Part shown: piece by piece, positions 464 to 19,435 of the stretch
How the letters are laid out: each line of letters begins with the position of its first letter
How positions within the stretch are numbered: the stretch's first letter is position 1
Assembly (NCBI RefSeq): GCF_000020025.1
Contig: NC_010628.1
Coordinates: forward strand, 4,230,001 to 4,262,000
Direction: 5' to 3'
Origin: Nostoc punctiforme PCC 73102
GTDB taxonomy: Bacteria > Cyanobacteriota > Cyanobacteriia > Cyanobacteriales > Nostocaceae
Length of the DNA: 32,000 nt
The notes under the pieces: model-generated
What the model saw: the letters and a program-made list of their open reading frames with translations, nothing else
Database searches by the model: none
What the model was told of the DNA's origin: nothing
Made by a program: the position numbers and the translations under genes

Positions 464-703
464 TTAGTCAAGTCCCAAAGTTGCTAGTGTTATTGTTTTT
501 ATTGTCAAGATAGCTGTTGTTTCTGTTGTTGGTATAGCTGTTGTTGTTGTAGCCGTTACTGTTGTTACTGTTATTATTGTTGAATTGAGTCCACCCTGAA
601 TGCTGAGAGCATCACTTTCAGACAATTGGTCCAAATAGCTTTCGGAATCATCAAATAATTCACTGCCAGTAACGGATAGATTATCAATTTTTATTGTACT
701 CAT
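464..703 (-). CDS. Double-glycine-leader RiPP/bacteriocin precursor (family A) with a Thr-rich, Cys-free core
   Basis: 79 aa. The 38-aa leader MSTIKIDNLSVTGSELFDDSESYLDQLSESDALSIQGG fits the LSxxELxxIxGG pattern. It is paralogous to the leaders of ORFs 1435-1626 and 1800-2021. The 41-aa core has 17 Thr, 1 Ser and 0 Cys. AAGGAGA lies 8 nt upstream of the ATG. Confidence 0.75.
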   Translation of the reverse strand: MSTIKIDNLSVTGSELFDDSESYLDQLSESDALSIQGGLNSTIITVTTVTATTTTAIPTTETTAILTIKTITLATLGLD

Positions 704-1115
704 TGCTTTATCTCCTTTGAAGAATTATTCAGGTTGCATAGGTATTAATTGCTGTATTTACCAATACTTACCTGAAAATATCTATATCTTAAAAGTTAAG
801 ATTAGCAAATTCAATTTACAAAATTACTTTTTGATGACATAATTATTTCATTATTAGCTTAATTTTAAATATAAAAAAAGTTTTTAGACAAATTGAAGAG
901 TTTGCTTTTAATATAAGACATTAACAAGGCTCATCTCTATTATTATGGGTAAAATAATCTAGGAGAAATCCAATTATAAAATTATAGTATATTAAAAAGA
1001 GACAAAACTAATTCATTTATGCGATCGCAAATTTTAAATCTGAGCAAAAACTAGAAAAAAATCAGCCCAAAATCCCTCTTGGACTGAACGATAAAAATTT
1101 AGATTTTGACTTTGT

Positions 1116-1304
1116 TCAAAGTAGTTCACTGTTTGAATTCGCTTCTTTCTGCTCAATATGTTGGCTCTGTTGTTGGCGACCTAGATATGAATCTTTATCG
1201 TTCTTACCTACAATGTATCCAAAGGCTGCACTTCCAATAGCTAGGAACAACAGTAGAACAATGCCTTCGTAACCATTGGGTTGATAAACAGGAGGCTGAC
1301 TCAT
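1116..1304 (-). CDS. Small single-pass membrane protein with a core-peptide-like segment (candidate immunity or leaderless paralogue)
   Basis: 62 aa with a hydrophobic stretch GIVLLLFLAIGSAAFGYIV. LAIGSAAFGYIVGKNDK matches the C-terminus LGLASAALGYAVGRNDR of the adjacent precursor at 10 of 17 positions. It has no double-glycine leader. Confidence 0.5.
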   Translation of the reverse strand: MSQPPVYQPNGYEGIVLLLFLAIGSAAFGYIVGKNDKDSYLGRQQQSQHIEQKEANSNSELL

Positions 1305-1434
1305 AAATTAATTTCCCGTTAATACAACTAAAAATTTACCTTAAATGCAGAGTGAAGGACATGAGTATTAAGACTAAGCCCTTCACTAAATGAACTGAAA
1401 ATTTTTGAATGATCTACAGAGGGATTATAGCTTA

Positions 1435-1626
1435 CTAGCGATCGTTACGACCCACTGCATATCCTAGTGCAGCAGAAGCTAAACCAAGGCTGATAAGTGC
1501 AAAAATGGTGAAACCACCATGAGATGATCCTGCTTGTTCATCAGATAGCTCGTTGAGAAAGCTTTCCTGATCTATAAAAAGAGATGAACCGGCTGGTTTA
1601 ATGTCGCTAATACAAATGGTTGCCAT
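1435..1626 (-). CDS. Double-glycine-leader RiPP/bacteriocin precursor (family A), hydrophobic 25-aa core
   Basis: 63 aa. The leader is MATICISDIKPAGSSLFIDQESFLNELSDEQAGSSHGG and the core is FTIFALISLGLASAALGYAVGRNDR. AAGGAAA lies upstream of the ATG. Confidence 0.75.
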   Translation of the reverse strand: MATICISDIKPAGSSLFIDQESFLNELSDEQAGSSHGGFTIFALISLGLASAALGYAVGRNDR

Positions 1627-1677
1627 GATTGAATTTCCTTTTATTTCAATTAAGCGAAAAGTGGTTTTTGCTGATTG

Positions 1678-1715
1678 CTAAACCTACATATATATAGGAA
1701 ATAATGTAGGTTTAG
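1678..1715 (-). other. Perfect 12-bp stem hairpin between two precursor genes (possible attenuator or processing site)
   Basis: CTAAACCTACAT (1678-1689) and ATGTAGGTTTAG (1704-1715) are exact reverse complements with a 14-nt loop. No clear U-tract follows on the minus strand. Confidence 0.4.
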
Positions 1716-1799
1716 AATAGTCTTGCTAAATCAATCAGACTTTTTAAACTACATACAAATGCTTCTTAACCTGTTCAAAATATTTAGAACAAGCAGAGT

Positions 1800-2021
1800 T
1801 TAGTAGTAGCGACCTTTAATGTAGGAAGCAACAAAAGTAACACCAACAACAGTAAGACCAATGCTTAAACAAGCTCCACTACTAGCTGTAGTGATAACTG
1901 TCCAAATAGCACCACCTTGATTACCTAATTCATCTTCAGTTAAAGACATCAGATAGCTTTCTTGATCGGCAAACAAATCGTAACCGGCTGGGCGTAAATC
2001 GGAAATTTTGATAGTAGCCAT
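1800..2021 (-). CDS. Double-glycine-leader RiPP/bacteriocin precursor (family A), 36-aa Ser/Thr-containing core with one Cys
   Basis: 73 aa. The leader is MATIKISDLRPAGYDLFADQESYLMSLTEDELGNQGG and the core is AIWTVITTASSGACLSIGLTVVGVTFVASYIKGRYY. AAGGAAAG lies upstream of the ATG. Confidence 0.75.
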   Translation of the reverse strand: MATIKISDLRPAGYDLFADQESYLMSLTEDELGNQGGAIWTVITTASSGACLSIGLTVVGVTFVASYIKGRYY

Positions 2022-2301
2022 CAGATGCTTTCCTTTGATTATCTAATTAATTATGCTTAGTAATAATCAGATATTTTCCTGATTTATTACATATTTATTG
2101 TATTTTTTAAATAGCTATAACTCAATACAAAAAACTAATTTAGCTTGACACAATAAAAACATTAATGTCCCATATATAAAATATATTTAGTTGGTATAAA
2201 TTTTTTGTCTTGCTATTTTTAAACCAATAAAATATCTGCCTTTTAAGACAAGAGGCAGATATTGATAAACAATAACAAATTAAACGTAAAATTTAACGAA
2301 A

Positions 2302-3057
2302 TCAAGCATCAGGAGTAGAAGCCGTTCTCTCTTCTAGCCAATTTATGAAGAGAAATTCTAAAATCTGCTCTCTGATTTCACTCAAGTCAGATGGAAACCA
2401 CTTCTCAACTCTAAGGATGTGATAACCAAGTTGAGTTTGAATTGGGCCTACTAATTCACCTACATCAATATCAGCAATAGCATTTGTAATCTCCGGTAAC
2501 AATTCTGTTAAAAACCGAATACCAACAAAAGCACCATTTTCTTTAGACTGCTTACCCTGAGAGTATTCTAAAGCTAATGCACAAAAAGAATCTTTTTTGT
2601 CCCGAAGCGCTTTAGTGATTTTCATTGCTTCTGTCAAATCACGAACAAGGATCTGAGACAAAGCCACCCGCTTATAACTATCCCGGTTATTTATATAATG
2701 ATCGTCCACCGCCACACCGAAAAGATGTTCTTTCAACTTTTGAGATAGCAATGATATGCGAATGATTTCCGACCAATCCTCTACACTAATGCGCTGATGT
2801 GCTAGCCATGCCAGAGTTTCAGATGTTCCCAGCAATTTGTTTTCTTGGCGAAATGTATCGCCTGCTGCTTGTAACTCTTCGTCTGTCACTTTAATATCTA
2901 GCTGTTCGCATAGTTTCAAAGTCAGAATATTTCTTTCAGCAGCAACAGCAATTTCAGCTATTTTGCAAGAATGGCGCAGGTAAGCAAGGATATCTTCATC
3001 ACGTGCAGGTGTAATTTCTGGAAATGTAAGTTTTTCTAAAGAGTGTTGCATGGTCAT
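2302..3057 (-). CDS. Parvulin-type peptidyl-prolyl cis-trans isomerase (PpiC/SurA-like) with an N-terminal helical domain
   Basis: 251 aa. The C-terminal GAFVGIRFLTELLPEITNAIADIDVGELVGPIQTQLGYHILRVEKW resembles the rotamase consensus (G..G.f......pe...a.f.l..Ge..gPv.t..GyHii.v). Confidence 0.7.
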   Translation of the reverse strand: MTMQHSLEKLTFPEITPARDEDILAYLRHSCKIAEIAVAAERNILTLKLCEQLDIKVTDEELQAAGDTFRQENKLLGTSETLAWLAHQRISVEDWSEIIRISLLSQKLKEHLFGVAVDDHYINNRDSYKRVALSQILVRDLTEAMKITKALRDKKDSFCALALEYSQGKQSKENGAFVGIRFLTELLPEITNAIADIDVGELVGPIQTQLGYHILRVEKWFPSDLSEIREQILEFLFINWLEERTASTPDA

Positions 3058-3151
3058 AGTATGTAATTCTGATCAAAATACATAATTTGTATCTTGTTGT
3101 GCAGTTATAGCCAGAAAATATTAACTATTAACTGCCTTGTATTTTTTTGAT

Positions 3152-4168
3152 TTAGGAGCGATAAATCAAGTTTTCTGGCAAAATATTTTTGATAGAAAGT
3201 TGATTGCGGTGTAAATCTCCATACAAATTCAGGTAATTAATTTCGGCAGGCGTAAGTTTGCCTTGCTTGACACTAGAAATGGCTGCATCAATTTCTTCCC
3301 GACGTTGCCATCCAGCCAAGCAAACATCTACACAGTTCTGGCTTAAAGAGTAGCGATATAAATCAGGTACTGAAGGCTGCCAACAATTTTCTGGCAGACC
3401 TTGGGGAGGGTTCCAAAGAGCGCCTGTATGAGAGCCTGTAGATTTAAAAGTAACGATACCTGGTCTATGAGAGTCTTGGGAGTCTAGTTGATTAAACAGT
3501 TGCGATTGAGCAGACTTATGAGCAACATTGTGTCTAACCATTACTACATCTAATAAAGGGCTGTTAGACCATTGTTGAGCCAGATTCATATCATGAAAAG
3601 ATGCTCCGACATAGCGAACAGCTCCCATTTTCTTAAGGCGTTCTGAAATTCCAACTATTTTTTCAATACTACGCTGATATACAGAATTAGCTCCTTTTAA
3701 ATCAGGAGACAGCTGTAAACAATCTTGTAAAGCTGACCCATCCTTAGAACCGATCCAGCCCCAGAAAAACACATCAATATAGTCAATACCTAATTCTACA
3801 AACTGATCGAGCAGTGCTGCGATCGCCATGTCTGGACTTTTAATGTAAGTTACTGTCGCTAGCACTACTTTCTCTCGCACCAAGGAACCACGTCCACACA
3901 TCTGGCGCAGTGCTCCAGCCATTGAGCTATAGATATAATGGTGCAGGTCACTGGAGTAAAAAAAGTAGTTAATTCCTTGGTCAAAGGCGTAAAGCGTATC
4001 CTCACTGGAAATGCTTCCACCACCTCCTAAGCCAAGACAGCTAACTGTTAAGTCAGTTCGCCCTAATTTTCGGTAGAAAGGTAAATCTGATTTTGGGAAT
4101 TTAGCATTTAGAGAATCAACTCCATCTGATTTGATTAAGGATTGTGGCGTAAGATTAGTTATTAGCAT
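3152..4168 (-). CDS. Aldo/keto-reductase-like oxidoreductase
   Basis: 338 aa. The N-terminal YRKLGRTDLTVSCLGLGGG is like the AKR start motif. Later IDYIDVFFWGW and VRYVGASFH resemble AKR TIM-barrel strands. Its ATG overlaps the stop of the upstream HopA1-like gene by 7 nt (ATGCTAA). Confidence 0.6.
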   Translation of the reverse strand: MLITNLTPQSLIKSDGVDSLNAKFPKSDLPFYRKLGRTDLTVSCLGLGGGGSISSEDTLYAFDQGINYFFYSSDLHHYIYSSMAGALRQMCGRGSLVREKVVLATVTYIKSPDMAIAALLDQFVELGIDYIDVFFWGWIGSKDGSALQDCLQLSPDLKGANSVYQRSIEKIVGISERLKKMGAVRYVGASFHDMNLAQQWSNSPLLDVVMVRHNVAHKSAQSQLFNQLDSQDSHRPGIVTFKSTGSHTGALWNPPQGLPENCWQPSVPDLYRYSLSQNCVDVCLAGWQRREEIDAAISSVKQGKLTPAEINYLNLYGDLHRNQLSIKNILPENLIYRS

Positions 4169-5280
4169 TCGTTCAATAACTGATAAATATTTTCCGAGTT
4201 AGCATTCAAGTAGACAGATTGCAAATCAATTCCCGCTAGAGAAAATTGCTCATGGATAGCCTGCATCCGTCCCTCTGGGGAGTCATCTCCTTGATACCAA
4301 GCTTTTAGTAATCCATTCGCCACAATCTGACAACGATTCATCCCAAAACTTTCCTGTTCAGCAAACTTTTTGTCTGGTTCTTCTGCTAACCCTAATCCTG
4401 GTAGAAGCTGCATCGTGAATAAAGGAACCTCTGGCTGAAAATAAGATTTATTTTCTCTATATACAACTTGTAAAACTTCTTTAACTACCTGATAATCCCT
4501 CTTATCAAAATACAAAACCCCTGAATCATGCCGTCCATAATCTTTTGGATTATACAAAACCTTAAAACTAAAAGGAATTGCTAACTTATTCAGTTGCTGT
4601 GTCAGACTCCTCATTACTGTCACAGCACCTTCAGGAGTCAAATTAAAATAGATTCGCACAGTTACTAATGGGTCGTTAGCATCCAGTAAACGAGTAAATC
4701 CTTGATTACCAACTGCCATATAAAAGCCATTTTGTACCCGATTTTTAGGCATCCGAATAGCTACCATATCACCTACTTTAGCGTCTTGGTCAATAGCTTG
4801 AAGATGCTTTTCAGGATGAATATGTAACCTCAAACCACCCTTTGTTACTACTAAACTACCGTCTATTTCTTCTTTAATAACAGACCAACCAAGGTCAAAA
4901 TTGCTGTCTCCACAATTACTTTCATGTAATTGCTCATACAATTCCAAATCTATTCCTAGAAAAGTATTATTTTCCAAATCTATGAGCAAACTATTTTCTT
5001 CTCCATCTAGTGCTAAAGCACTTCGCATAGAACCGTTGTAATATATCCCATAGAGAAAAGCCCGCAATTGCAGACTCAGATATTTCTGTTGCATCTGGGG
5101 TGGCATATTCTGAAAACGTTCAACTATCTCAGATGATAATTCCAAAGGTTTGTAATCTGGATGGTGGATGGAAAAATCAGATTTTATCTCAATTTTTTGA
5201 GCAATATCTTGTAAAACATCCAGTAATTGCCCAGTTAATCCAACCTCTAATTGAGTTTGGGAAGAATTTAATAATTGCAT
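4162..5280 (-). CDS. HopA1-effector-family-like protein (candidate phospho-Ser/Thr lyase partner of the adjacent kinase)
   Basis: 372 aa. Motifs I recall from HopA1-family proteins are present: VRIYFNL, FKVLYNPKDYGRHDSGVLYF, GLAEEP....ESFGMNRC. It is immediately downstream (28-nt gap) of an APH-like kinase, as in known kinase/HopA1-like dehydratase pairs. The assignment is from memory and needs an HMM check. Confidence 0.55.
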   Translation of the reverse strand: MQLLNSSQTQLEVGLTGQLLDVLQDIAQKIEIKSDFSIHHPDYKPLELSSEIVERFQNMPPQMQQKYLSLQLRAFLYGIYYNGSMRSALALDGEENSLLIDLENNTFLGIDLELYEQLHESNCGDSNFDLGWSVIKEEIDGSLVVTKGGLRLHIHPEKHLQAIDQDAKVGDMVAIRMPKNRVQNGFYMAVGNQGFTRLLDANDPLVTVRIYFNLTPEGAVTVMRSLTQQLNKLAIPFSFKVLYNPKDYGRHDSGVLYFDKRDYQVVKEVLQVVYRENKSYFQPEVPLFTMQLLPGLGLAEEPDKKFAEQESFGMNRCQIVANGLLKAWYQGDDSPEGRMQAIHEQFSLAGIDLQSVYLNANSENIYQLLNEC

Positions 5281-5308
5281 AATTTTTATTTAGTAATCAC
5301 AAAATGAT

Positions 5309-6469
5309 TTAAACAGGAGAATTATTTAGATGGCCTAATTCAACAGCAGCAGCACCAAAAATTGTTGGCATCGATTGTACAGGACGGCTTAATAACGTCT
5401 TAGCAACCTGAAGCATAGCAATCCCCATATTGCCAAAAGATTTTTGATATTGAATCATCGCCTGAATTTGTTGAATCAACGTAAAACCCGTAAATTGCAC
5501 TACCCGTTGCAAGAAATCAGAGCGGTGGTCTAGAATTTCTGGAAAAGTCTTCAAATAAGCTTGGGTTAATGTACTAATTGAAGGCTGAAGTACTTCTAAA
5601 GGTGTAATTGCCAAACGTAGAGACTCTTCAATACTCAAAGAATTACTAATAACCAAGCTACCCAACCAGATTTGGACATAGCTGCTAATTAGTGTTCCTA
5701 AATCAAAAGCTGGATCTCCCCAAGCAGAGCGTTCCCAATCTATTAGCCGGACAATATTGTTACTAGAATCTTGCCAATCTTTGTGCAGGAGAATATTATT
5801 TAGTTTTAAATCATTATGGGTGAGACAAGAGGGTGTTACAGCATTGCCCAATTCGGCGATCGCTTGCCCCAAGCTATCATAACGTTGATAGAGAGCAAAA
5901 AACTTTAACCCATCGCTAGGAACTATACCAAAAATTTCCGGTTCAACCCGTTCTAATCTGCGAACTAAATGTAATACTTGATCGCCCATTAAATTATCTG
6001 AATTTTTAGTAAAGAATTCCTGATATTCTTGGCGGTTGAAAGTATCACGATGGATAGTCCCTAAAATATTACCAATTGCCGTAGCGATTTCTATATTAAA
6101 GCTATTTCCCTTGGTATAAAAATCCATTAAATCCCGATAATCATCGAAATATTTAAAGACAATAATGGAATTTTCGACATCAAAATGCAGTACTTCTGGT
6201 AAAAATGAACGGTAGTTGCTAAGGTTTGGAAATTGTTGTAAAAACTCTTGAATTCGCCACTCAATTAAAAATTCACCAGCCGCTTTCCCTTCGGGATTGT
6301 GTCGTTCTTGTTTAACTAAAAGTTTGCGATCGCCTGGTAAAGTCACTAATAAGTTGAAATTCTTGGCTGTAAGTTGTTCTATTTTAGCGGGAGGTTGCTC
6401 GGATTGATTACATAATCCTTTTTCAAGCAAATAATTGAAAACATTCTGTGAATTTAAGATAAATGTCAT
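5309..6469 (-). CDS. Aminoglycoside-phosphotransferase (APH)/MtnK-like kinase-fold protein
   Basis: 386 aa. It has the catalytic-loop-like LTHNDLKLNNILL (HxDxxxxN) and the metal-binding IDWERSAWGDPAFDLG (DWE...GDP..DL) characteristic of the APH/choline-kinase fold. Confidence 0.8.
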   Translation of the reverse strand: MTFILNSQNVFNYLLEKGLCNQSEQPPAKIEQLTAKNFNLLVTLPGDRKLLVKQERHNPEGKAAGEFLIEWRIQEFLQQFPNLSNYRSFLPEVLHFDVENSIIVFKYFDDYRDLMDFYTKGNSFNIEIATAIGNILGTIHRDTFNRQEYQEFFTKNSDNLMGDQVLHLVRRLERVEPEIFGIVPSDGLKFFALYQRYDSLGQAIAELGNAVTPSCLTHNDLKLNNILLHKDWQDSSNNIVRLIDWERSAWGDPAFDLGTLISSYVQIWLGSLVISNSLSIEESLRLAITPLEVLQPSISTLTQAYLKTFPEILDHRSDFLQRVVQFTGFTLIQQIQAMIQYQKSFGNMGIAMLQVAKTLLSRPVQSMPTIFGAAAVELGHLNNSPV

Positions 6470-6482
6470 AGGTCTTAATCAA

Positions 6483-6683
6483 TTAGTTGTAACTTTTGAA
6501 GATACCAGCTTCCTTCTCAATGCGATCTAAAGCCTTCTTTGCTCTAAAAATCAGCCGCAAATAGTTTAACTGACTATTCCAAGCTGAACGAGGTAACAGG
6601 GTTAGTAAAGGCTCTACCTCATTCTGGGATTGTTCAATATGAGTAATATTCGGATCTTCTGGAGGGATAAATTTACTTGACAT
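6483..6683 (-). CDS. Hypothetical 66-aa protein translationally coupled to the rSAM gene
   Basis: Its ATG lies 1 nt after the rSAM stop (TAA T ATG), and its stop is 13 nt before the kinase ATG. I recognise no motif. Confidence 0.45.
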   Translation of the reverse strand: MSSKFIPPEDPNITHIEQSQNEVEPLLTLLPRSAWNSQLNYLRLIFRAKKALDRIEKEAGIFKSYN

Positions 6684-6684
6684 A

Positions 6685-7974
6685 TTATTTATCTGAATGA
6701 GATTTAGAACTAACTAAGGATGAAACTAATGGTTCTTCTTTCCAACCTTCTGGCCATTGAATGCGATCGCTAGTAAAATGAAGTGGATCGTTTTCAGGCC
6801 AAGCGGTATTAATCGGTTCCTCAATCAGAGCAAACTCGCCATTATCAAAGGGATTTCCATCTGCACGACGTTGAAGAAATACTCGCTCTCGAATACCGCC
6901 TTTTTCCTGAGTGAGGGCGCGATGATGGCAGTAAGGATTGTTACCTCGTTTATCAAAGAAAACGTGAGCAGTCCAACTGCAACCACCTCGACAGAGTTCC
7001 GCAAATTCGCAAGACTTGCAGAAACCCCATAAATGTGATGTTCCTTTGGGAGTATCAGCTTCGAGATTGAACCGTAGTTCTTCAGTTTCTTCAATAATTG
7101 TCCGCAGTGAATGGTCACGGATGTTACCACCAGTGTAGGCTGTGGTCGGTAGTGAGGGACAACCTTTGATAGCACCATCGGCTTCAATACCTAAAGCAGA
7201 CAGTCCAGCGCTACATCCCTGCCAAAATGACCAAGCATCTCCACCCCGTAGCAGTCGTTCATAGGGCCCGTAGTAGCCGATGTTATTCCCAGGCTGTATC
7301 TGCACCCCTTCTTCCTTGGCGCGTTCAGCAACACGAGCAATCATTGGGTATATATCCAATAGTTCGTAAGGTTGCAGCAGAATATCACCATTATCAGCAG
7401 CATTGCCCATCGGTACAGTTAACTGAATTTGCCAAGCGAATACTCCAGCGTCGCGGATACGCTCATAAATTTGGGGAAATTCTGGTGCAGACAGACGATT
7501 GATTTGCGTATTGCAGCCGAAAGGGATACCTGCTTCCTTAAGATTGCTCATGGTCTTAAACGCCCATTGCCACGAGCCTTGTTTGCCCCGCAGACGGTCA
7601 TGAGTTGCTTCTAAGCCATCAACCGACACAGAAACCACGCCAATACCAGCTTCTTTCATCCGGCGGGCTGTGTCTAAGGTGATACCATAACCCCCAGTAG
7701 TCATACCACACAACATCCCAGCTTTAGTAATTGCTTGGGCAATCTCTAACCAGTCAGGACGCAGAAATGCTTCACCACCAATTATGGTTACTTCTGTGAT
7801 TCCAACTTCCGCCATTTGTTTGACTAAATCAAGGGCTTCTGCTGTGGAAAGTTCGTTAGCCCTTGTATGACCCGCACGAGAACCGCAGTGTTGACAGGCT
7901 AGATTACACTTGAGTGTAATTTCCCAAACTGCATAACTAATTCGGCGATAAGTCATAAAAATACCCTCAATCAA
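6685..7974 (-). CDS. Radical SAM enzyme with a full SPASM domain (Nif11-class peptide maturase-like)
   Basis: 429 aa. It has the CNLACQHC (CxxxCxxC) cluster at residues 23-30 and the SPASM signature CSAGLSALGIEADGAIKGC ... CKSCEFAELCRGGC (Cx2Cx5Cx3C). An alternative start at 7956 (MTYRR) has a GAGGG Shine-Dalgarno-like motif. Confidence 0.9.
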   Translation of the reverse strand: MIEGIFMTYRRISYAVWEITLKCNLACQHCGSRAGHTRANELSTAEALDLVKQMAEVGITEVTIIGGEAFLRPDWLEIAQAITKAGMLCGMTTGGYGITLDTARRMKEAGIGVVSVSVDGLEATHDRLRGKQGSWQWAFKTMSNLKEAGIPFGCNTQINRLSAPEFPQIYERIRDAGVFAWQIQLTVPMGNAADNGDILLQPYELLDIYPMIARVAERAKEEGVQIQPGNNIGYYGPYERLLRGGDAWSFWQGCSAGLSALGIEADGAIKGCPSLPTTAYTGGNIRDHSLRTIIEETEELRFNLEADTPKGTSHLWGFCKSCEFAELCRGGCSWTAHVFFDKRGNNPYCHHRALTQEKGGIRERVFLQRRADGNPFDNGEFALIEEPINTAWPENDPLHFTSDRIQWPEGWKEEPLVSSLVSSKSHSDK

Positions 7975-8005
7975 TTAATTTTTCTACAAAGGGACGGATA
8001 AATCC

Positions 8006-8131
8006 CTATCTATCCCTAGTTTTAACTATTTGGTTACATTGTTCTTTGCTATTAACGCTTTCAATTTGATGACGAAACGCTTCATCATTTGCTAGATTTT
8101 CGTAGAAAGCTTTGACATTTTTTATGGGCAT
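8006..8131 (-). pseudogene. Truncated Nif11-type leader paralogue (41 codons, no core peptide)
   Basis: My own translation is MPIKNVKAFYENLANDEAFRHQIESVNSKEQCNQIVKTRDR*. This aligns with residues 1-37 of ORF 8288-8620 (MSLEHVKAFYQKLANDEAFSNQIQGVNSKEECSQIVK). It then runs directly into a copy of that gene's 3' hairpin region. AGGAGA lies upstream of the ATG. Confidence 0.6.
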
Positions 8132-8225
8132 AAGATTCTCCTAACCTTGATTAATTAAATATATTTTTTACTTTTATGCATGATTTTTTTATCTGTCATT
8201 TCGATTCTCTTGTGAATTTATAAAA

Positions 8226-8249
8226 GGACGGACAAGTCCCTATCCGTCC
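8226..8249 (-). terminator. Candidate intrinsic terminator/attenuator after the Nif11 precursor gene
   Basis: The minus strand reads GGACGG-ATAGGGACTTGT-CCGTCC followed by TTTTATAAATT. A diverged copy (7989-8016) follows the truncated leader, just upstream of the rSAM gene. Confidence 0.55.
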
Positions 8250-8287
8250 CCAGAATTTTAAACTGTTATGGTCGCAATCCAGGTTCC

Positions 8288-8620
8288 CTAAAGTGTGTCA
8301 TCTACCCGGATAACTCCATACATAAGTTGGTAGGGTGGCCATACAACTCCATATAATGGTTGGATTCTTGGTTTCCCAGTTAATCCACCAAAAACTGCTG
8401 CTAGTTCTTTTTCACTTAAATCTTTGAGTTCACCTTCACCATCGGCAGATTCTAACAATTGAGCGGTATATTCTTCATACTCTTCTAGAGTGAAATCGTA
8501 GCCGGCAGCTTTAACTATTTGGCTACATTCTTCCTTACTATTAACGCCTTGAATTTGATTACTAAACGCTTCATCATTTGCCAGCTTTTGATAAAAAGCT
8601 TTGACGTGTTCTAGAGACAT
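8288..8620 (-). CDS. Nif11-like-leader RiPP precursor with double-glycine cleavage motif
   Basis: 110 aa. The N-terminus MSLEHVKAFYQKLANDEAFSNQIQGVNSKEECSQIVKAAGYDFTLEEYEEY fits the Nif11 leader family. LSEKELAAVFGG is a textbook LSxxELxxIxGG. The core is LTGKPRIQPLYGVVWPPYQLMYGVIRVDDTL. AAGGAG lies upstream. Confidence 0.85.
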   Translation of the reverse strand: MSLEHVKAFYQKLANDEAFSNQIQGVNSKEECSQIVKAAGYDFTLEEYEEYTAQLLESADGEGELKDLSEKELAAVFGGLTGKPRIQPLYGVVWPPYQLMYGVIRVDDTL

Positions 8621-8676
8621 AATTTTCTGCTCCTTGAATTACTTAACAGTTGGTAATTATATTAGAATATTGAACC

Positions 8677-9114
8677 TTAGCCGGCAGCGAGGTTTGACAC
8701 TTCAATGGTTACTTCAGACGGATTGTAGTTATCTGTAATTACTTGCGGACAACGCATACAAGCTGCTTTGCCTTCTTGGTTCCACCACCGACAATCTCGG
8801 CGGATAGAACAAGGAGGCAATTCCTCTGCAACTACGGTTAATTTTCCGGCAATTTGCTTCGCTAGACGACAATCTTCTCCATCAAAATGCAGACAAGCTT
8901 TAGTGGCACAAGGTGCTGCTGTGCGAAAAATTTCAGCAGGTGTAACTGGACTAGCTTTTGCTATCAGTTCATCGGTGATAGGTATGGGTTGCTTGAGATA
9001 AGTTACACGTGGTTCTGCAACTGTTCCACTGATTATGCCGAAAACAACACTATTTTCAGATTCTGGCCTAGCACTGGGGCAAAGTGTAGTTTTATCCACA
9101 ACAATGTCTTCCAT
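8677..9114 (-). CDS. Cys-rich hypothetical protein (145 aa) between two precursor genes
   Basis: It has nine Cys, including APCATKACLHFDGEDCRLA and PPCSIRRDCRWWNQEGKAACMRCP. There is no signal peptide and I recognise no family. Confidence 0.55.
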   Translation of the reverse strand: MEDIVVDKTTLCPSARPESENSVVFGIISGTVAEPRVTYLKQPIPITDELIAKASPVTPAEIFRTAAPCATKACLHFDGEDCRLAKQIAGKLTVVAEELPPCSIRRDCRWWNQEGKAACMRCPQVITDNYNPSEVTIEVSNLAAG

Positions 9115-9258
9115 TAATTGAGCCTCCAGCAGAGAAAGCCTTTATAAATACGAGCTTTCAGTCGAATTGGGATATACCATTCTTAAATCATTCGTGAAAA
9201 ATTATATCCCCGACTTTTTTACGAAATGAGGGATTTTGATACCACAAATTTTCACAAA

Positions 9259-9504
9259 TCAGATAGAATTGTCAACTGCTACGAGTCCTATAGTAATAGG
9301 AGGAATAAAAATCTTACCAAGTATTATGGGAACCAATTTTGATTCTCCACCTGAAACGCTTTTTGCTTCCTCATCAGACATAGATAACAAAGCTTCTTCT
9401 GAATCCAAAACTTCGTTTCGACGTGTGACGGCATTTTTCACAGCATCATCAATCAAATCGTTAACTTCAATTTGACTGTGATACTTTCTTTCTTTAGCTT
9501 CCAT
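9259..9504 (-). CDS. Double-glycine-leader precursor (family C), hydrophobic Pro/Ile-rich core
   Basis: 81 aa. The leader ends LSMSDEEAKSVSGG and the core is ESKLVPIILGKIFIPPITIGLVAVDNSI. GAGGGAAA lies upstream. I prefer this minus-strand reading to the antisense ORF 9236-9475 because of the GG-leader architecture. Confidence 0.6.
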   Translation of the reverse strand: MEAKERKYHSQIEVNDLIDDAVKNAVTRRNEVLDSEEALLSMSDEEAKSVSGGESKLVPIILGKIFIPPITIGLVAVDNSI

Positions 9505-9899
9505 GTTGATTTCCCTCTGATTTTTTAACTATTTTTAGGCAATTGCAATTATTATATTTATCAGTGTAATTGCCTAGGATTTACTCATATTAGTAAATAA
9601 TAAAGCTAATTACTTGATTTTTTACAACTTTAAATTAGACAGAAATAAAACTTTTATGTCACTAAAAAACGATAATCTTTGCTTTGAGTTATCCATCTTT
9701 TTATATATGGGCATATACAAAAGTGTTGAATGTTAAGAAAAATCCGATAAAAATAGCCCAAAATATGACAGGTGAATTCTAGCTCCCGTGTTGAATTTGA
9801 GAGAGCCGCCGCCAACACAGAAACCATGTATCGATCATTTATAGCTGTTCTGCGTGACTTTTGGCGAATACTGCGACGAAAAGATGTTTCTCGTTCTAA

Positions 9900-10811
9900 G
9901 AGGTTGTTTGAAAAGTTCCCAGTTGATTAAAAAAAGCTCTCAGGGCATAAGCTGTAGATACGTATATACAGCACCATTGAGAGCGATGAGTAAAGCATAC
10001 TCTAGTAACCTGACCCAAAGTCAATTCGAGTTAATTGAACCGCTGATCCCTGTGGCTAAATCTGGTGGTCGTCCACGAGAAGTAGAAATCTGGGCAGTGC
10101 TAAACGCCATTTTTTATGTACTGGTTCAAGGCTGCAAGTGGCGAGACCTACCTGAGAATTTCCCGGCATGGCAGACGGTGTATACATATTTCCGTAATTG
10201 GCGTATTGATGGGACGTGGATAGAAATCCATGATCGTCTACGGGCATGGACAAGAGCGGATCATGAGCGATTGCCAAGTCCCTCTGAAGCCATAGTGGAC
10301 AGCCAAAGCGTTGAAACAGCAACTATGATTCATCAAGCCGTCGGCTACGACGCTGCCAAGAAGATCAAGGGACGCAAACGGCATATGACTGTCGATACAT
10401 TGGGTTTGGTGTTGCGCGTACTGGTGACTGCTGCTAATGTACCTGAGCGAGAAGGCGGCAAACAAGTCTTACTAAAAGTTCAACAGATGGGGAGTATGGT
10501 ATCTCGGCTGAACACGGTTTGGGTTGATGGCGGTAGGAACAGCGAGCCATTTATGCGTTGGCTCATGGATTTTTGTCGTTGGATTGTGCAAGTGGTGTTG
10601 CGACCTCAACACCACAAGAAATTTGTTTTGCTTACGAAACGCCCTTGTGGTTGAGCGTACTTTCGGTTGGCTCAACTGGTACCGCCGACTTAGCAAAGAA
10701 TATGAGCAATTACCCGAAACAACTGAGACTTTCATTTACCTTGCTATGATTCGGCTTATGCTCAGACGACTTGCATAATTTTTTACTGGCTTTCACTTTT
10801 CAAACAACCTC
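9900..10811 (+). mobile_element. IS5-family insertion sequence (912 bp) with 17-bp perfect terminal IRs and a TAA target duplication
   Basis: GAGGTTGTTTGAAAAGT (9900-9916) is the exact reverse complement of 10795-10811. TAA flanks both ends (9897-9899 and 10812-10814). Confidence 0.85.
9986..10778 (+). pseudogene. IS5-family DDE transposase, frameshifted near 10640
   Basis: MSKAYSSNLTQSQFELIEPLIP...GRPREV...KWRDLP...AIVDSQSVET...KGRKRHMTVDTLG is typical of IS5 transposases. The C-terminal [22 protein letters not shown] continues in another frame (ORF 10524-10778), consistent with a 1-nt indel in the cgccc run. Confidence 0.8.
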
Positions 10812-10863
10812 TAAGGCATTGAGGGCAATGCGACGTAGTAAAGCAAAGTTTTGTATCGACATT

Positions 10864-11095
10864 CAACATTTCTGGGACATATACTAGTACCGCAAGGCGG
10901 AAGTCAAAAGTCAAAATCCAAAAGTTAAAAGTTAAAAGTTTTATGGAATAAGCTCTTTAGGGATTTTCAATGATTGCTCTATTTACGCCGCCTTGTACTA
11001 GTTACTCAAGCTGTCAAATCTTTCCGACTAATTCAAATTAGATATCTCAGGCAATTTTGACTATTAACTAAAATATTTATGTCCCGAAAATGTTG
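10864..11095. repeat. MITE-like element with nested inverted repeats
   Basis: The outer IR is CAACATTTCTGGGACATA (10864-10881) against TATGTCCCGAAAATGTTG (11078-11095). The inner IR is ACTAGTACCGCAAGGCGG (10883-10900) against CCGCCTTGTACTAGT (10988-11002). There is no ORF inside. Confidence 0.4.
10903..10937. repeat. Heptamer tandem repeat (5 units), STRR-like
   Basis: The units are GTCAAAA GTCAAAA TCCAAAA GTTAAAA GTTAAAA. Confidence 0.6.
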
Positions 11096-11744
11096 CCAAT
11101 TTATATATCATGTCCGCTTGAGCAGAAAAAACAAGCTTATTGATACTATAAATTACACGCTACCAAACCAATTTTTTCCACAACTCAACCCAACAAATTG
11201 AGCAAATATAAGCATTTGGGTAAGGCTGGAAGCCCTGCTCATATTGATGCTGTCCTCTCCGTCGCTAGAAGAACTCAAATCGATCACTTAACTTCCTGCA
11301 TCGACTCTCTTCATCAAAATTGGGTGGACTTGTACGATAGCCTCAAAGAGAAAAAGTAAGTCGAATTATCCGTTTTTTCGCCAACATGTGCCAAAAATGA
11401 TATCAACTCTGATATCAATGCCCGACCAGAGTAAGCGTTCACCACCGTAGATGGGCGGTTACGCCATCGCGCTGACGTGGGGAGCGCCAAAGCGCAGCTA
11501 TTCCAAAGGTAGTGCTAAAAATCAGCCAAAGTCGCCACTATAAGGAGTAACCCCCAAGCCTTGTACAGAGAAAGGATAGATATTTGCCAAACTTATCAAT
11601 GGGGGTGAAATTGGGATTTTCAGGGGTGTGAATGATAAGCGTGACTTAACTGAAGTAATTTTCGGGGTGGTTATTCACGACAGAATCAGGGTTTGGGACG
11701 ATGAGAACTGTTGGTATTTAGCGGCTTAATACGAACAGTAGAGA

Positions 11745-12335
11745 TTGGTAAAAATGCTGGTACGTCGTAAGAATGAGGATTACAGGTCACGGGAATATCT
11801 TACAGTACGTGAGGTAAATAGCATTCTACGAGGGGCAAAAGTTTACGGGCGGTACAAGGTGAGGAACTATGCCTTGGTACTGTTAATATTTCGCCACGGG
11901 CTGCGGGTGTCGGAGGCTTGCGATTTGCGATGGGATGCGATTTCATTTCTGGATGAGGAGATTTTTATCACGCGCAAAAAAGGGAGTGATAGCGGGGTTC
12001 ATCCGTTGCCTGTGGATGAAATCGAGGCATTGAAACAATTAAAGGAATTAAATATTGGTGGCAATTACGTTTTTATTGGGGAAAGGGGGGAGAGGTTAAC
12101 CCCGGCTGCGGTACAAAGATTGTTGACCAGGTTGGGGGAAGTCGCAGAATTAAACATTAAAATCCACCCGCACCAGTTACGCCATGCTTGCGGTTACTAC
12201 CTTGTGAATGAGGGGCATAGTACTAGATTTATTCAGGAATTTTTAGGACATAGAGATATACGCCACACCGAAAAATATACCAAAGTAAATTCCAAACGTT
12301 TTTCTGGTATCAAGTGGAACACAATTGATGAGTAA
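11745..12335 (+). CDS. Small tyrosine recombinase (FimB/FimE-size, phage-integrase family)
   Basis: 196 aa. It has GLRVSEACDLRW (the Arg I region) and HPHQLRHACGYYLVNEGHSTRFIQEFLGHRDIRHTEKYT (the HxxR ... H ... Y catalytic box), closely resembling the FimB/FimE C-terminus. An ATG alternative start lies at 11754. Confidence 0.85.
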   Translation: MVKMLVRRKNEDYRSREYLTVREVNSILRGAKVYGRYKVRNYALVLLIFRHGLRVSEACDLRWDAISFLDEEIFITRKKGSDSGVHPLPVDEIEALKQLKELNIGGNYVFIGERGERLTPAAVQRLLTRLGEVAELNIKIHPHQLRHACGYYLVNEGHSTRFIQEFLGHRDIRHTEKYTKVNSKRFSGIKWNTIDE

Positions 12336-12407
12336 TGAAATTAACTGATAATCGCATCTCTATTCAATGCGTTTTGATTGGGGTGAGGTGATGTCCACGT
12401 CTCTGCG

Positions 12408-12626
12408 GTGCGAAAGCTGATTGGGCGATTGGCAGCACAGGCTGGGCTTGATATCAAAGTTCACTGTCACATGATGCGCCATGCCTGCGGTTACTATCTG
12501 GTGAATCACGGTTACAACACTAGGGAAATTCAAGACTTCCTGGGACACCGTGATATCAAACACACTGAAAAATATACCTTGCTGAATGCTCGACGCTTCC
12601 TGAATTTTGATTGGGGTGATTTGTAA
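12408..12626 (+). pseudogene. C-terminal fragment of a second tyrosine recombinase
   Basis: RKLIGRLAAQAGLDIKVHCHMMRHACGYYLVNHGYNTREIQDFLGHRDIKHTEKYT parallels residues about 123-185 of the neighbouring recombinase. The N-terminal two thirds are missing. Confidence 0.75.
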
Positions 12627-12932
12627 AATTTTAACTGTAGTCGCACGCAATTCATCGCCACAAAACTAGTCAGTAAATCTTTTATTTGAGCGATATACCC
12701 CCCGTATAATATTCAACAAACTTCTTCTATCTAGAGAAGTAATTTGTTAGCTAAAAAAGAATTATACAGATTTGTAGAGTATATTCTACAGATTGATTTG
12801 TTTGACTAAATTTTCTTATATAAATTTCTTAGCAAATAATTGTCCGAGGAATTCAGTAATCAAAGGAGATACAAATCTTTTTGATGCTGATGACCAAGCA
12901 GCTAGAGGATAAAGATATTTTGTCTGTGAACG

Positions 12933-13309
12933 ATGGATGGTGTTATTAAACGTATATTGATTTGTGATGATGTGGCTGATAACTCAATTCTTATGAAAAC
13001 GATTCTAGAAGCAGAGTCATGCCAGATTGAAATTGTTGATTCGGGAGCAGAGGTGCTAGCCTTTCTTGAAACAAACCTAACCCAACTGACCTGCTAATAC
13101 TAGATGTTCAGATGCGTTTAATGGATGGATTTGAAGTTGTTAGACGCATCCGACAATCGACTAAATTTAAATTTATTCCTATTTTGTTGGTGACAGGTAT
13201 CGCTGAAGATGATGCTCAGAAGGCTCTTGATATAAAGATTGATGGATTTATCCAAAAGCCTATTGATTGTGATGCAGTAATCGCTCAGGTCCGAGCAATT
13301 TTAGACTAA
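12933..13309 (+). pseudogene. CheY-like response-regulator receiver domain, frameshifted
   Basis: Frame 1 reads MDGVIKRILICDDVADNSILMKTILEAESCQIEIVDSGAEVLAFLE and then stops. A second frame, open from 13070, reads KPNPTDLLILDVQMRLMDGFEVVRRIRQ...PILLVTG...KPID. Together they form a complete receiver (DD ... D ... T ... K). The indel is near 13066-13075. Confidence 0.7.
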
Positions 13310-13389
13310 AATTGAGAAAAGGATTTTAAAATTAAGAGGTGATTGGAGTTGATCCATAATAGTAAAGATGGGTAGGAGAAAGACTGTTT

Positions 13390-13641
13390 ATGAATAATGT
13401 TTCCAAAGATTTAGAAGCTCTAGAAGAAATTTTTATAGCTATAGAAGTTCCTGACTTGAATGATGTAGTAATCCTTCAAGGGTCAGCAATTGTTGATTTA
13501 GCCGAATTTCAATTAACACCTCAAGAAACTATGAAGTTTAAAAAAATATTTGAAAAAGTGAATACCAAACTTGCAGAGTCATTATATGAACAGTTTCCTG
13601 CTAGTTCAATTATCTCTGAGATTCGAGTAAAATCGCAGTGA
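13390..13641 (+). CDS. Hypothetical protein (83 aa)
   Basis: ORF only, with GGAGAA upstream. I recognise no motif. Confidence 0.35.
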   Translation: MNNVSKDLEALEEIFIAIEVPDLNDVVILQGSAIVDLAEFQLTPQETMKFKKIFEKVNTKLAESLYEQFPASSIISEIRVKSQ

Positions 13642-13832
13642 TTCGGCATTTTTCAGTCCATGTCAGGATTTGGAAACTTCAGAACAAGGTCCTATTTACA
13701 AAGATAATCAAGTGAATAATTGTCAAACTAAGTGATTCTGATTCCAAAACGGGTATTTTAATACTAAATGTAGATGTAAATGTAAAAGCAACGTGAAATA
13801 AATAAGTCTAGATTTGTACTAAGAAGATTTTT

Positions 13833-14096
13833 TTGAATATGGATAACGACAATCAGATAGACAATAACAATTTTATCTACCAGCGCTATCGATATCTTGG
13901 AAAGTACACGCCTCAAAAATTTTTATTCAATGCTAATCTTCAAGAATTTTCTGAACGTGTCTGTCATCTCTCTAATCTACAGACTTCGGGGAAAATTTCT
14001 TCACAGAAATGCTATGAGGAAATTGAGTTACTCTGGCATCAGTTAACACAGAGCTTTAAGGCGCTAATAAGTGATGAGTTTGACGTAACTGAATAA
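13833..14096 (+). CDS. Hypothetical protein (87 aa)
   Basis: ORF only. It vaguely resembles small conserved cyanobacterial proteins. No motif-level support. Confidence 0.35.
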   Translation: MNMDNDNQIDNNNFIYQRYRYLGKYTPQKFLFNANLQEFSERVCHLSNLQTSGKISSQKCYEEIELLWHQLTQSFKALISDEFDVTE

Positions 14097-14276
14097 TTGT
14101 TACACTTGATTACTCCTGGTTTGCTAGTATTCTTTTAAACAAAAAGTTTTAGGTACTGAAACATACACAAGAAAATTTGCATAGTTCTGGGCTGATTCTG
14201 ATGACTTTTCCACATTGTCAACAATGTATACAAAGTGGTAAATTTACTGTGTACGCTGTTGACAAAGTGGAAAGAT

Positions 14277-15053
14277 ATGGGGAAAAAAACCAAGGAATCG
14301 CCTATTGTAAGCTTCCGTGTGCCACATTCGGTTGTCGAAAAGTTAATTACAGAAGGCAGATTGAAGCCTAACCATATAAAGTCAGAGTTATCCAACCTAA
14401 TCAAAAATGACTGGTTAGCCTCTGTTGATGCTGGTGTAGAACCAACCGTGAGTGTAAATACTGTTTATGAGCAACTAGCAAAAATAGATAGAGTTCTAGA
14501 AATACTTGAGGACAATAAACCGAATGGCGTTATTGATGACAATGTAGACAGTGTTGACAAAATTAGCATCCCTGAAAGCGTAGACTCAATCTCGCCAGAT
14601 AATCAGCTTGTAGAGGTTGCCAATAGTAATGTACATCTCGTAGAGGAAATAAATGGGGATAATAAACCGAATGGCGTTGTTGATGCCAATGTAGACAGTG
14701 TTGACAAAATTAGCATCCCTGAAAGCGTAGACTCAATCTCGCCAGATAATCAGCTTGTAGAGGTTGCCAACAGTAATGTACATCCCGTAGAGGAAATAAA
14801 TGGGGATAATAAACCGAATGGCGTTGTTGATGAAAACAGTATTGAGTCATTGAATTTGAAAAGAAATACTTATACGGCGCTTAAAGATGCAAAAGTTAAC
14901 ACAATAGAAGATTTAAATAAATATGGTGTCACAGGCTTGCGAACACTGAAAAATCTGGGAAATAAATCTGTATCTCAGATAGTTGAAGCATTGCTCTTCC
15001 GAGGGATTGAGTTACCAGAGTTACCAGACCCGGAACACACGCCTTCTCTCTGA
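14277..15053 (+). CDS. Modular protein: RHH-like N-terminus, 49-aa tandem repeats, RpoA alpha-CTD-like helix-hairpin-helix tail
   Basis: The likely start is MGKKTKESPIVSFRVPHSVVEKL (the track ORF begins at 14235). It contains 2.2 copies of a 49-aa repeat. The C-terminal LNLKRNTYTALKDAKVNTIEDLNKYGVTGLRTLKNLGNKSVSQIVEALLFRGIEL resembles the RNA polymerase alpha C-terminal domain consensus (L.LS.R..N.LK.agI.tv.dL......eL....N.G.KS..Ei...L...Gl.L). Confidence 0.55.
   Translation: MGKKTKESPIVSFRVPHSVVEKLITEGRLKPNHIKSELSNLIKNDWLASVDAGVEPTVSVNTVYEQLAKIDRVLEILEDNKPNGVIDDNVDSVDKISIPESVDSISPDNQLVEVANSNVHLVEEINGDNKPNGVVDANVDSVDKISIPESVDSISPDNQLVEVANSNVHPVEEINGDNKPNGVVDENSIESLNLKRNTYTALKDAKVNTIEDLNKYGVTGLRTLKNLGNKSVSQIVEALLFRGIELPELPDPEHTPSL
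14514..14832 (+). repeat. 147-bp tandem repeat, 2.2 copies, inside the CDS
   Basis: Units start at 14514, 14661 and 14808 (AATAAACCGAATGGCG...). Units 1 and 2 differ at 4 of 147 positions. Confidence 0.9.
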
Positions 15054-15308
15054 GCAGTAATTCCGAAAGCTACGCGCTAGGACTTGATGAGCCGTTTTCA
15101 ATATCGCAGTGTCAAAAACGTTGTAGTCTGTGGGCGGTGATGTCGGCAAATAGTAGATTGGGTGTAAGGAGGGTAAGAGTTTAAGGGTGTAAGGGTTTTG
15201 AACATTTACGCCTCCACACCTCATTCGGCTGACGCTCACGGCACAAGCCTATACTCTTATAGCCCTCGTCATCCAAAATACTGATTTTCTATCACTGCAT
15301 TAGTCCTA

Positions 15309-16586: not shown

Positions 16587-16788
16587 ACTTAATAGGTTAG
16601 TTACTTGAGTTAATTAGTAGTTGATATTGACCCTAAATAGGTAGATTAGCTCCAATAAATTACTTCATTTGAAACGAATAAATAAAGAAACAATACATAA
16701 TTAAAAATCCTAATAAATCAGCAAAGATTAAATCATTTGATTTAAAAAAATCTGCATGACTATTGGTAATGTAGTTACTGAGTATGCT

Positions 16789-19429: not shown

Positions 19430-19435
19430 ATCCTT

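Follow-up and report, generated by a model that had tools for sequence, protein, structure and literature searches.

Two kinds of system for peptides made on the ribosome and modified after translation (RiPPs) stand closest to the gene island considered here, which lies at positions 464-9504 of a 32,000-nucleotide stretch of Nostoc punctiforme PCC 73102 (assembly GCF_000020025.1, contig NC_010628.1, positions 4,230,001 to 4,262,000 of the forward strand), referred to below as the window. In type I spliceotide systems, a radical S-adenosylmethionine (rSAM) enzyme, 'X', is followed directly 3' by the gene for a small protein, 'Y', which activates X via a helix (PMC5995677, PMC11414181). Spliceotide precursors carry a Nif11/NHLP leader, and a tyramine equivalent is excised from them at X-Tyr-Gly motifs, the residue before Tyr natively being Leu or Met; one of the enzymes, PlpX, has been placed in IPR026482 by a review (PMC11002830). 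The second kind is Family 1A of Eyles et al. 2021 (PMC8153245), which comprises 570 peptides in 183 clusters found only in cyanobacteria and encoding a HopA1/phosphotransferase pair. Its members have a conserved double-glycine (GG) leader, hypervariable cores without conserved Ser, Thr or Cys, and several precursors per cluster; peptidyl-prolyl isomerases (PPIases) and peptidase-ABC transporters accompany them, a small subset lies adjacent to Nif11 and rSAM clusters, and the co-occurrence table of the same paper includes an aldo/keto reductase (AKR) column. Liang et al. 2022 (PMC9486802) describe the cyanobacterial peptides as 'type-B' class V LanA, and under antiSMASH-type rules these clusters are called 'lanthipeptide-class-v', which is the RiPP class predicted most often in cyanobacteria.

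A first-pass annotation of the window had described an island of RiPP genes whose leaders fall into three families, and this description is well supported. As it had stated, every named gene from 9504 down to 464 lies on the minus strand at its place in the list of open reading frames (ORFs), and the five double-glycine strings that it quoted occur verbatim in the translations. Profile searches likewise bear out the rSAM/SPASM, kinase, HopA1-like, AKR-like, parvulin and Nif11-leader families, and recomputation reproduces its gene junctions: 1 nt from the rSAM gene to the 66-aa ORF, 13 nt from there to the kinase gene, 28 nt from the kinase to the HopA1-like gene and an overlap of 7 nt between the HopA1-like and AKR-like genes. 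The junction between the AKR-like and PPIase genes is 94 nt, and three further minus-strand ORFs, at 8677-9114, 8006-8131 and 1116-1304, had not been listed. The features are as follows, grouped into the modules M1 (9504-8677), M2 (8620-6483) and M3 (6469-464) for which we argue below.

9259-9504, minus strand: candidate precursor of M1, 81 aa (ORF list)
8677-9114, minus strand: partner in M1, 145-aa Cys-rich protein (ORF list)
8288-8620, minus strand: putative spliceotide precursor of M2, 110 aa (PF07862 62.8 bits, TIGR03798 57 bits)
8006-8131, minus strand: truncated Nif11 leader, 41 aa (PF07862 37 bits)
6685-7974, minus strand: radical SAM/SPASM enzyme of M2, candidate splicease 'X' (TIGR04103 832 bits)
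6483-6683, minus strand: small 'Y' accessory protein of M2, 66 aa (homologues adjoining the rSAM gene)
5309-6469, minus strand: LanK-like Ser/Thr kinase of M3, aminoglycoside phosphotransferase (APH) fold (PF01636 45 bits)
4162-5280, minus strand: LanY-like phospho-Ser/Thr lyase of M3, HopA1 domain (PF17914 212 bits)
3152-4168, minus strand: AKR-superfamily-like TIM-barrel protein of M3 (PF00248 28.7 bits, partial)
2302-3057, minus strand: parvulin-type PPIase of M3, PPI-1 (PF00639 53.8 bits)
1800-2021, minus strand: Family 1A precursor A3 of M3, 73 aa (ORF list)
1435-1626, minus strand: Family 1A precursor A2 of M3, 63 aa (ORF list)
1116-1304, minus strand: leaderless 62-aa ORF (BLASTP to the A2 core)
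464-703, minus strand: Family 1A precursor A1 of M3, 79 aa (ORF list)
9854-10654, plus strand: IS5-family transposase (NF033580 161 bits)

We consider it probable that the island consists of three adjacent RiPP modules, each able to stand alone, two of them of known kinds and one an uncharacterised pair of genes. It would thus be a mosaic in which M1, M2 and M3 are packed head-to-tail in a sub-lineage of Nostocales. The evidence comes from a comparison of gene neighbourhoods. A scan of one genome per species with the rSAM alignment yielded 381 relatives, of which the top 80 were retained together with flanks of 10 kb. These 80 loci (L005-L084), which include Moorena and Microseira, are all 84-96% identical; Pleurocapsa lies outside this set, and the comparison set as a whole numbers 84 related cyanobacterial loci. 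Counts of downstream genes refer to those 61 loci whose downstream flank is 8 kb or longer. A homologue of the 66-aa Y protein adjoins the rSAM gene in 80 of 80 loci, immediately downstream in nearly all, and Nif11 precursors lie upstream in 78. The 145-aa protein (62/80) and the 81-aa peptide (61/80) are somewhat less frequent, and kinase, HopA1-like and AKR-like homologues are found in 42, 41 and 21 of the 80, respectively. The usual order runs (lnt, gyrA)<- thf1, trmB -> 81-aa peptide -> Cys-rich protein -> Nif11 precursor(s) -> rSAM -> Y -> optional kinase/HopA1 block <- PPIase <- HlyD <- ABC transporter <- helix-turn-helix (HTH) protein.

The three modules can be separated in several ways. 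Kinase and HopA1 genes are present in 33 of the 61 loci, on the same strand as the rSAM gene in 25 and on the opposite strand in 8, and in 17 of the 61 the exporter stands beside the rSAM module with no kinase/HopA1 genes. The AKR-like gene occurs in 16 of the 61, and about half of the 33 loci with kinase and HopA1 lack it. Conversely, the kinase-HopA1-AKR-like-PPIase block, with precursors of its own and no rSAM gene, is found in Chroococcidiopsis, Trichocoleus, Coleofasciculus and Dapis (L085-L088); in the first three, precursor, kinase, HopA1, AKR-like and PPIase genes lie beside HTH, exporter, HlyD and PPIase genes, while the Dapis contig stops short of the kinase and the part in view matches the rSAM-free block of the other genera. 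The M1 pair occurs on its own in Microcoleus (L089), and in L017, L060 and L061 its two genes move together. The comparison across cyanobacteria thus shows the gene sets that the first-pass annotation had joined to be neighbours in 33 of 61 loci, but each is complete alone elsewhere. The composite locus itself appears in [Tolypothrix] sp. PCC 7415, where near-consecutive accessions for the HopA1 protein, the rSAM enzyme and the Cys-rich protein (AVH79456, AVH79461, AVH79464) suggest that it has already been deposited as a single GenBank record.

M2 matches a type I spliceotide system, judging by its profile scores, gene order and core motif, and its rSAM enzyme is a candidate splicease. The 110-aa precursor has a Nif11 leader that ends LSEKELAAVFGG and a core, LTGKPRIQPLYGVVWPPYQLMYGVIRVDDTL, with two X-Tyr-Gly motifs, LYG and MYG. 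Such a motif is present in 127 of 129 Nif11-like ORFs of the related loci (LYG in 114, MYG in 45), and YG occurs in 118 of 118 distinct cores, where composition-preserving shuffles average 22.6 and reach 37 at most. The rSAM protein scores 90 bits with PF04055, 22 bits with SPASM (PF13186) and 832 bits with TIGR04103 (cut-off 725), the NCBIfam 'nif11-class peptide radical SAM maturase 3'. It carries C23x3C27x2C30 and a full SPASM cysteine set (C254/C272, C319x2C322x5C328x3C332, C349). The Y ORF, which begins 1 nt past the rSAM stop, encodes a conserved C-terminal helix, read from the sequence pattern, of LLPRSAWNSQLNYLRLIFRAKKALDRIEKEA in the window and LLPRSAWNSQ.xYLR..FRAKKALDRIEKEA in the family. 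From the characterised PlpXY and PcpXY systems, an excision step in the Nif11-leader precursor is predicted: the rSAM/SPASM enzyme, activated by Y, would excise a tyramine equivalent at LYG and MYG, leaving an alpha-keto-beta-amide (-C8H9NO).

Orthologues of this enzyme are 84-98% identical over Nostocales, Moorena and Microseira, the nearest homologues among the matches listed being from Nostoc. Its neighbours diverge far more (Y 46-89%, kinase 39-88%, and the precursors also), and the rSAM gene mostly occupies one fixed position close to trmB, thf1 and gyrA, a conservation that is odd for an enzyme of 'secondary metabolism'. Because of the high identity across orders and the fixed chromosomal locus, a conserved physiological role is suggested for the splicease gene, rather than that of a sporadic antibiotic. 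The TTG start listed at 7974 would add six residues that are absent from most homologues, and since most of these begin MTYRRISY, the ATG at 7956 is probably the true start. Upstream, the truncated Nif11 ORF at 8006-8131 is by its reading frame a pseudogene of a second precursor, since only leader residues 1-40 are left and the remainder is found in no frame; an intact paralogue, with cores such as LTGW..ILIYGAPGGLWNFW, occupies the same position in L005, L010 and L016.

M3, to judge from its gene content, is a cyanobacterial class-V-lanthipeptide-like 'Family 1A' cluster in the sense of Eyles et al. The best NCBIfam match of the kinase is the class V kinase LxmK (NF038156), at 85 bits and under the 315-bit cut-off, and its catalytic motifs HNDLKLNN (residue 218) and DWE (residue 244) are in place. 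The HopA1 domain of the lyase spans residues 177-358 and matches PF17914 over the full model length (212 bits). Lyase residues R209, K240, R250 and Y257 are conserved in 39-40 of 41 homologues and have the spacing of R187, K219, R229 and Y236 of CaoY, four residues known from mutagenesis to be essential; kinase and lyase both look catalytically competent by these motifs. The three precursors share the leader MA.IKISDL.PAG..LF.D.ES.L and a GG motif. In A3, which has homologues in 40 of the 80 loci, the leader ends LTEDELGNQGG and the core, AIWTVITTASSGACLSIGLTVVGVTFVASYIKGRYY, holds nine Ser/Thr and one Cys, while the A2 core, FTIFALISLGLASAALGYAVGRNDR, has three Ser/Thr and no Cys. The A1 leader ends LSESDALSIQGG and is followed by a 41-aa core with 17 Thr (41%) and no Cys, which, if fully dehydrated, would be an extremely dehydrobutyrine (Dhb)-rich peptide; public assemblies contain identical copies of A1 in 56 index blocks, including L001-L004.

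By homology with CaoK/CaoY and TvaC/TvaD, the M3 kinase is predicted to phosphorylate Ser and Thr of the three hypervariable cores, after which elimination of the phosphate by the HopA1-like lyase would yield dehydroalanine (Dha) and Dhb. Profile searches of the window ORFs found no LanC, no LanM and no second APH-fold (LanX) gene, the APH family being represented by one ORF. Because A1 and A2 are Cys-free and there is no cyclase gene, most M3 products should be dehydrated peptides and not lanthionine-bridged ones. Among 92 distinct Family 1A cores from related loci, 22 contain Cys; since most cores lack it, 'lanthipeptide' is probably a misnomer for the cyanobacterial 'class V' clusters. Two side observations concern the precursors. 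The hydrophobic segment of the 62-aa ORF at 1116-1304 resembles the A2 core (12/23 identical, E 4e-7, BLASTP), and in L006, L016 and L049 the ORF is retained just after a precursor of the A2 type. It may encode an immunity or decoy protein, or be a decayed precursor. In addition, many Family 1A cores, those of the three window precursors not among them, start Ile/Leu/Val-Thr/Ser-Pro right after GG (for example L036:16929-17120 and L010:14415-14612); their clusters encode the kinase and one or two parvulins, which recalls the Pin1-type recognition of phospho-Ser/Thr-Pro.

The AKR-like protein of M3 matches PF00248 over residues 98-216 only, at 28.7 bits (cut-off 24), and hhalign relates it with 95% probability to the genuine AKR of the window (30072-31082). 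The positions of the D/Y/K/H tetrad in the hhalign alignment are occupied by Y71, Y80, V106 and G137; in 27 homologues the last three do not vary, and Y71 hardly does. Invariant Cys and His residues are numerous in the family. An AlphaFold2 model is weak (pLDDT 52), and its top 50 Foldseek matches are all AKRs at a TM-score of about 0.4, a level that speaks for the coarse fold only. The reductase-fold protein of the first-pass annotation is thus of the AKR fold family, but three of the four catalytic residues of an AKR are gone; on these alignments, it is a barrel of the AKR superfamily that lacks the canonical reductase site. We had entertained the possibility that it acts as an NAD(P)H-dependent, LanJ-type reductase of Dha and Dhb, but this is unlikely, since the catalytic Asp, Lys and His are replaced. 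The family has 580 homologues, and the best 120 listed share at least 74% identity and, where the source names an organism, come from cyanobacteria. The parvulin scores 67 bits with TIGR04500, under the 180-bit cut-off, and a parvulin at least 59% identical on the same strand accompanies the AKR-like gene in each of its 21 loci and is found in none of the others. Our guess is that the two form an accessory unit with a non-redox scaffold, binding or isomerisation role, which we would prefer over LanJ-type reduction; no publication that characterises the AKR-like partner was found in the literature searched.

M1 pairs a GG-leader peptide with an eight-Cys protein, both uncharacterised. Its 81-aa peptide has the leader MEAKERKY..EVNDLIDDAVKNAV.RRNE..SDEEAKSVSGG, for which the family pattern is ..EINDLIDDAV.NAV.RRNE...SDEEAK.VAGG, and a semi-conserved core, PIILGK..PPITIGLVA. 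It has no Pfam or NCBIfam match, and its homologues (61 of 80 loci) always adjoin the gene for the 145-aa Cys-rich protein. The latter has eight invariant cysteines (C12, C69, C74, C82, C102, C108, C119, C122) and an LCPSA motif; the invariant positions of its family are LCPSA, R64, C69, C74, C82, C102, R105, C108, C119 and C122. There are 1131 close homologues, with 1061 representatives at 50% clustering, to which NCBI gives the name 'nitrogen fixation protein' without evident basis. Ten representatives, of which eight are longer forms, have no domain recognised by Pfam, and a profile search of the PDB with the 145-aa protein gave no match; its AlphaFold2 model has a pLDDT of 38.

A double glycine, preceded by an acidic and Leu-rich stretch, closes each of the three leader types. 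The first-pass annotation had noted that the window holds no LanC/LanM cyclase and no C39-peptidase ABC exporter, which profile searches uphold, and within 8 kb to the left of the window there is likewise no LanC, LanM or second APH gene and no exporter of the peptidase-containing ABC transporter (PCAT) type, an extension drawn from contigs with the identical 79-aa precursor gene. The PCAT is indeed missing here, but this is a local loss: an operon of HTH protein, PCAT, HlyD and PPIase lies convergent to the cluster in 46 of the 61 related loci. The exporter of the relatives is a 909-aa protein with cNMP-binding, C39 peptidase, ABC membrane and ATPase domains, that is, a PCAT, and its operon also encodes HlyD, a second parvulin and the HTH protein. 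Because this operon accompanies M2 alone or M3 alone in different genomes, we infer that one C39 PCAT serves as the shared machine for cleavage and export, as the simplest link among the modules. The operon is missing from the present copy, so either cleavage and export are supplied from elsewhere in the genome or the copy is crippled. A 707-aa ORF at 26267-28390 was considered as the missing PCAT and rejected, as it encodes a penicillin-amidase/PvdQ-like acylase. The HTH protein upstream of the exporter (L027:18758-19474; at least 23 loci) resembles the N-terminal DNA-binding part of IS630 transposases (NF033545, 80 bits) and, having no DDE domain, may be a domesticated regulator.

The surroundings of the island are rich in transposases, and the usual trmB/thf1 flank is missing along with the exporter operon. 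The IS5 transposase at 9854-10654 marks the right-hand break in synteny, where relatives carry trmB and thf1. It opens a stretch rich in mobile elements (9854-25893), in which we also find a tyrosine recombinase (11745-12335), an EndoU-domain toxin (15309-16586), a T5orf172/MUG113 protein, an IS630-like pair (22166-23082), and DDE_5 and DDE_Tnp_1 transposases. Further right, a PvdQ-like acylase, a type II thioesterase and the canonical AKR (26267-31082) are typical of non-ribosomal peptide metabolism. The left flank beyond the window has a 94-aa ORF, which in our reading is a transposase fragment although it has no profile match, as well as further genes typical of that metabolism, for a major facilitator superfamily transporter and a non-ribosomal peptide synthetase with a C-A-T-TE module (L001:3017-8727), and no exporter. 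A search of the plasmid collection gave no near-identical match to the island.

Several points weigh against the three-module interpretation and its assignments. The rSAM and kinase/HopA1 gene sets do adjoin in 33 of 61 loci, and the junctions of 1, 13, 28 and -7 nt would be compatible with a functional coupling of M2 and M3. M2 is likened to the PlpX and PcpX systems by profile, gene order and core motif, and neither enzyme was among the 120 best listed rSAM homologues or the 80 best loci. The profile link further presumes that IPR026482 corresponds to TIGR04103. Native spliceotide products have, according to the literature, never been isolated. As for M3, the literature searched has no characterised product of a cyanobacterial HopA1/kinase (Family 1A) cluster, so its dehydration chemistry is extrapolated from actinobacterial homologues, and its kinase scores far under the LxmK equivalog cut-off (85 against 315 bits).

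The view of the first-pass annotation was that the rSAM enzyme, the kinase and lyase, the reductase-fold protein and the PPIase form one novel operon and jointly modify all of the GG-leader precursors. The tight junctions from the rSAM to the AKR-like gene speak for it, as do the recurrence of the 13-nt gap between Y and kinase in L022, L024, L031 and L032 and the vicinity of the gene sets in more than half of the loci with enough flank. With a gap of 13 nt, M2 and M3 are likely to be co-transcribed here, and the genes from rSAM to AKR are indeed tight enough for the single transcription unit that had been proposed, but this is not general: the gap is 49-2181 nt elsewhere, often including a precursor gene, so co-transcription is, on these spacings, likely a lineage-specific fusion that neither pathway requires. 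A promoter and terminator scan showed no excess over chance and speaks neither for nor against a single transcript. Against joint modification, the set of rSAM, 66-aa and Nif11 genes recurs in all 80 loci with or without kinase and HopA1, the kinase-HopA1-AKR-like-PPIase block is free of rSAM in four genera, and in 8 of 33 loci the two sets are on opposite strands and convergent. Each is thus complete and solitary elsewhere, and Y is parted from the kinase in many loci by a Family 1A precursor gene and 300-2000 nt. The substrates differ as well, the Nif11 cores being rich in XYG and Pro and poor in Ser/Thr and the Family 1A cores lacking a conserved YG. We therefore regard a jointly acting pathway as very improbable; nor is the combination new, since Eyles et al. 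(PMC8153245) had already noted the adjacency to Nif11/rSAM clusters.

The other readings concern the chemistry of M3 and the state of this copy. M3 might make true class V lanthipeptides with lanthionine or methyllanthionine rings, the AKR-like protein being a new, possibly metal-dependent cyclase that replaces LanX. This would suit the LxmK match of the kinase, the correspondence of HopA1 with LanY, the 'lanthipeptide-class-v' label that antiSMASH-type rules assign, the many invariant Cys and His of an AKR-like protein that has no canonical redox site, and the one Cys in core A3. We nevertheless think it quite improbable, as the A1 and A2 cores have no Cys, only 22 of 92 related cores have any, about half of the kinase/HopA1 loci have no AKR-like gene, and neither a second APH-fold LanX nor a LanC gene is present. 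That the window has a displaced, decaying copy which has ceased to make exported products is also improbable. The missing exporter operon and trmB/thf1 flank, the truncated Nif11 precursor, and borders made up of the IS5 transposase, an integrase and more transposases, with the transposase-like 94-aa ORF on the left, would all fit decay, but every enzyme ORF is intact with its catalytic motifs, the 79-aa precursor and neighbouring M3 genes are 100% identical from several independent sequencing runs, and a PCAT encoded elsewhere could serve, GG leaders being generic. Finally, new chemistry might be hidden in any of three places: an AKR-like/parvulin tailoring unit, M1 as a new RiPP class, or an operon fusion that couples the modules. 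We consider this unlikely. If the AKR-like/parvulin pair is a new tailoring or chaperone unit, it might confer a non-lanthionine modification on the Cys-free, Thr/Ser-rich Family 1A peptides, such as a new crosslink, a processing of Dhb or an isomerisation coupled to the phospho-intermediate. In this lineage, an operon fusion of splicease with kinase and lyase genes could co-regulate three peptide families or even couple them functionally by way of one exporter.

Under the three-module interpretation, the island resolves into known building blocks whose adjacency is already in the literature. What novelty remains lies in the products of the cyanobacterial kinase/HopA1 clusters, in the catalytically degenerate AKR-like protein with its parvulin and in the pair of peptide and eight-Cys protein. 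The latter two pairs are both conserved and worth attention.

The comparison with known systems can be summarised module by module. M2 shares with PlpXYA and PcpXYA of Pleurocapsa (Morinaka et al. 2018; Richter et al. 2024, PMC11414181) a cyanobacterial rSAM/SPASM enzyme with a small gene directly 3', a Nif11-type leader and cores with one to three X-Tyr-Gly motifs in which Leu or Met precedes Tyr; two such sites are found both in PcpA and in the M2 precursor. It differs from them in that no gene for an rSAM epimerase (PlpD-like) is present here and that its rSAM orthologue is unusually conserved, at 84-98% across orders. M2 is also embedded between the 81-aa peptide/Cys-rich pair and the kinase/lyase cluster, and it is known from sequence alone. 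Like Family 1A of Eyles et al. 2021 (PMC8153245), M3 has an APH kinase/HopA1 pair, a GG leader, several variable cores and a PPIase. The peptidase-ABC transporter of that family, on the other hand, is absent from this copy, in the window as in the left flank, and adjacency to rSAM clusters, described there for a small subset, is frequent when seen from the rSAM side (33 of 61 loci). The AKR-like partner without a catalytic tetrad goes beyond the Family 1A description.

With LxmK/LxmY/LxmX (lexapeptide), CaoK/CaoY (cacaoidin) and TvaC/TvaD (thioamitide), M3 has in common a separate kinase and HopA1-like lyase, a pair that in those systems dehydrates Ser/Thr, and the Arg/Lys/Arg/Tyr constellation of the lyase is that of class V systems (CaoY). 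Unlike these systems, M3 lacks a LanX cyclase, a cysteine decarboxylase and an F420-dependent reductase, its cores are mostly Cys-free, and its leader is of another type, with a GG site. The exporter of the relatives, in turn, resembles NHLP/Nif11 export (TIGR03796 PCAT, TIGR03794 HlyD; Haft et al. 2010) in combining a C39-peptidase ABC protein and HlyD with GG leaders, but its two proteins score under the NHLM equivalog cut-offs (581 versus 853 and 75 versus 156), and it is set apart by an N-terminal cNMP-binding domain and by its parvulin and IS630-like HTH companions.

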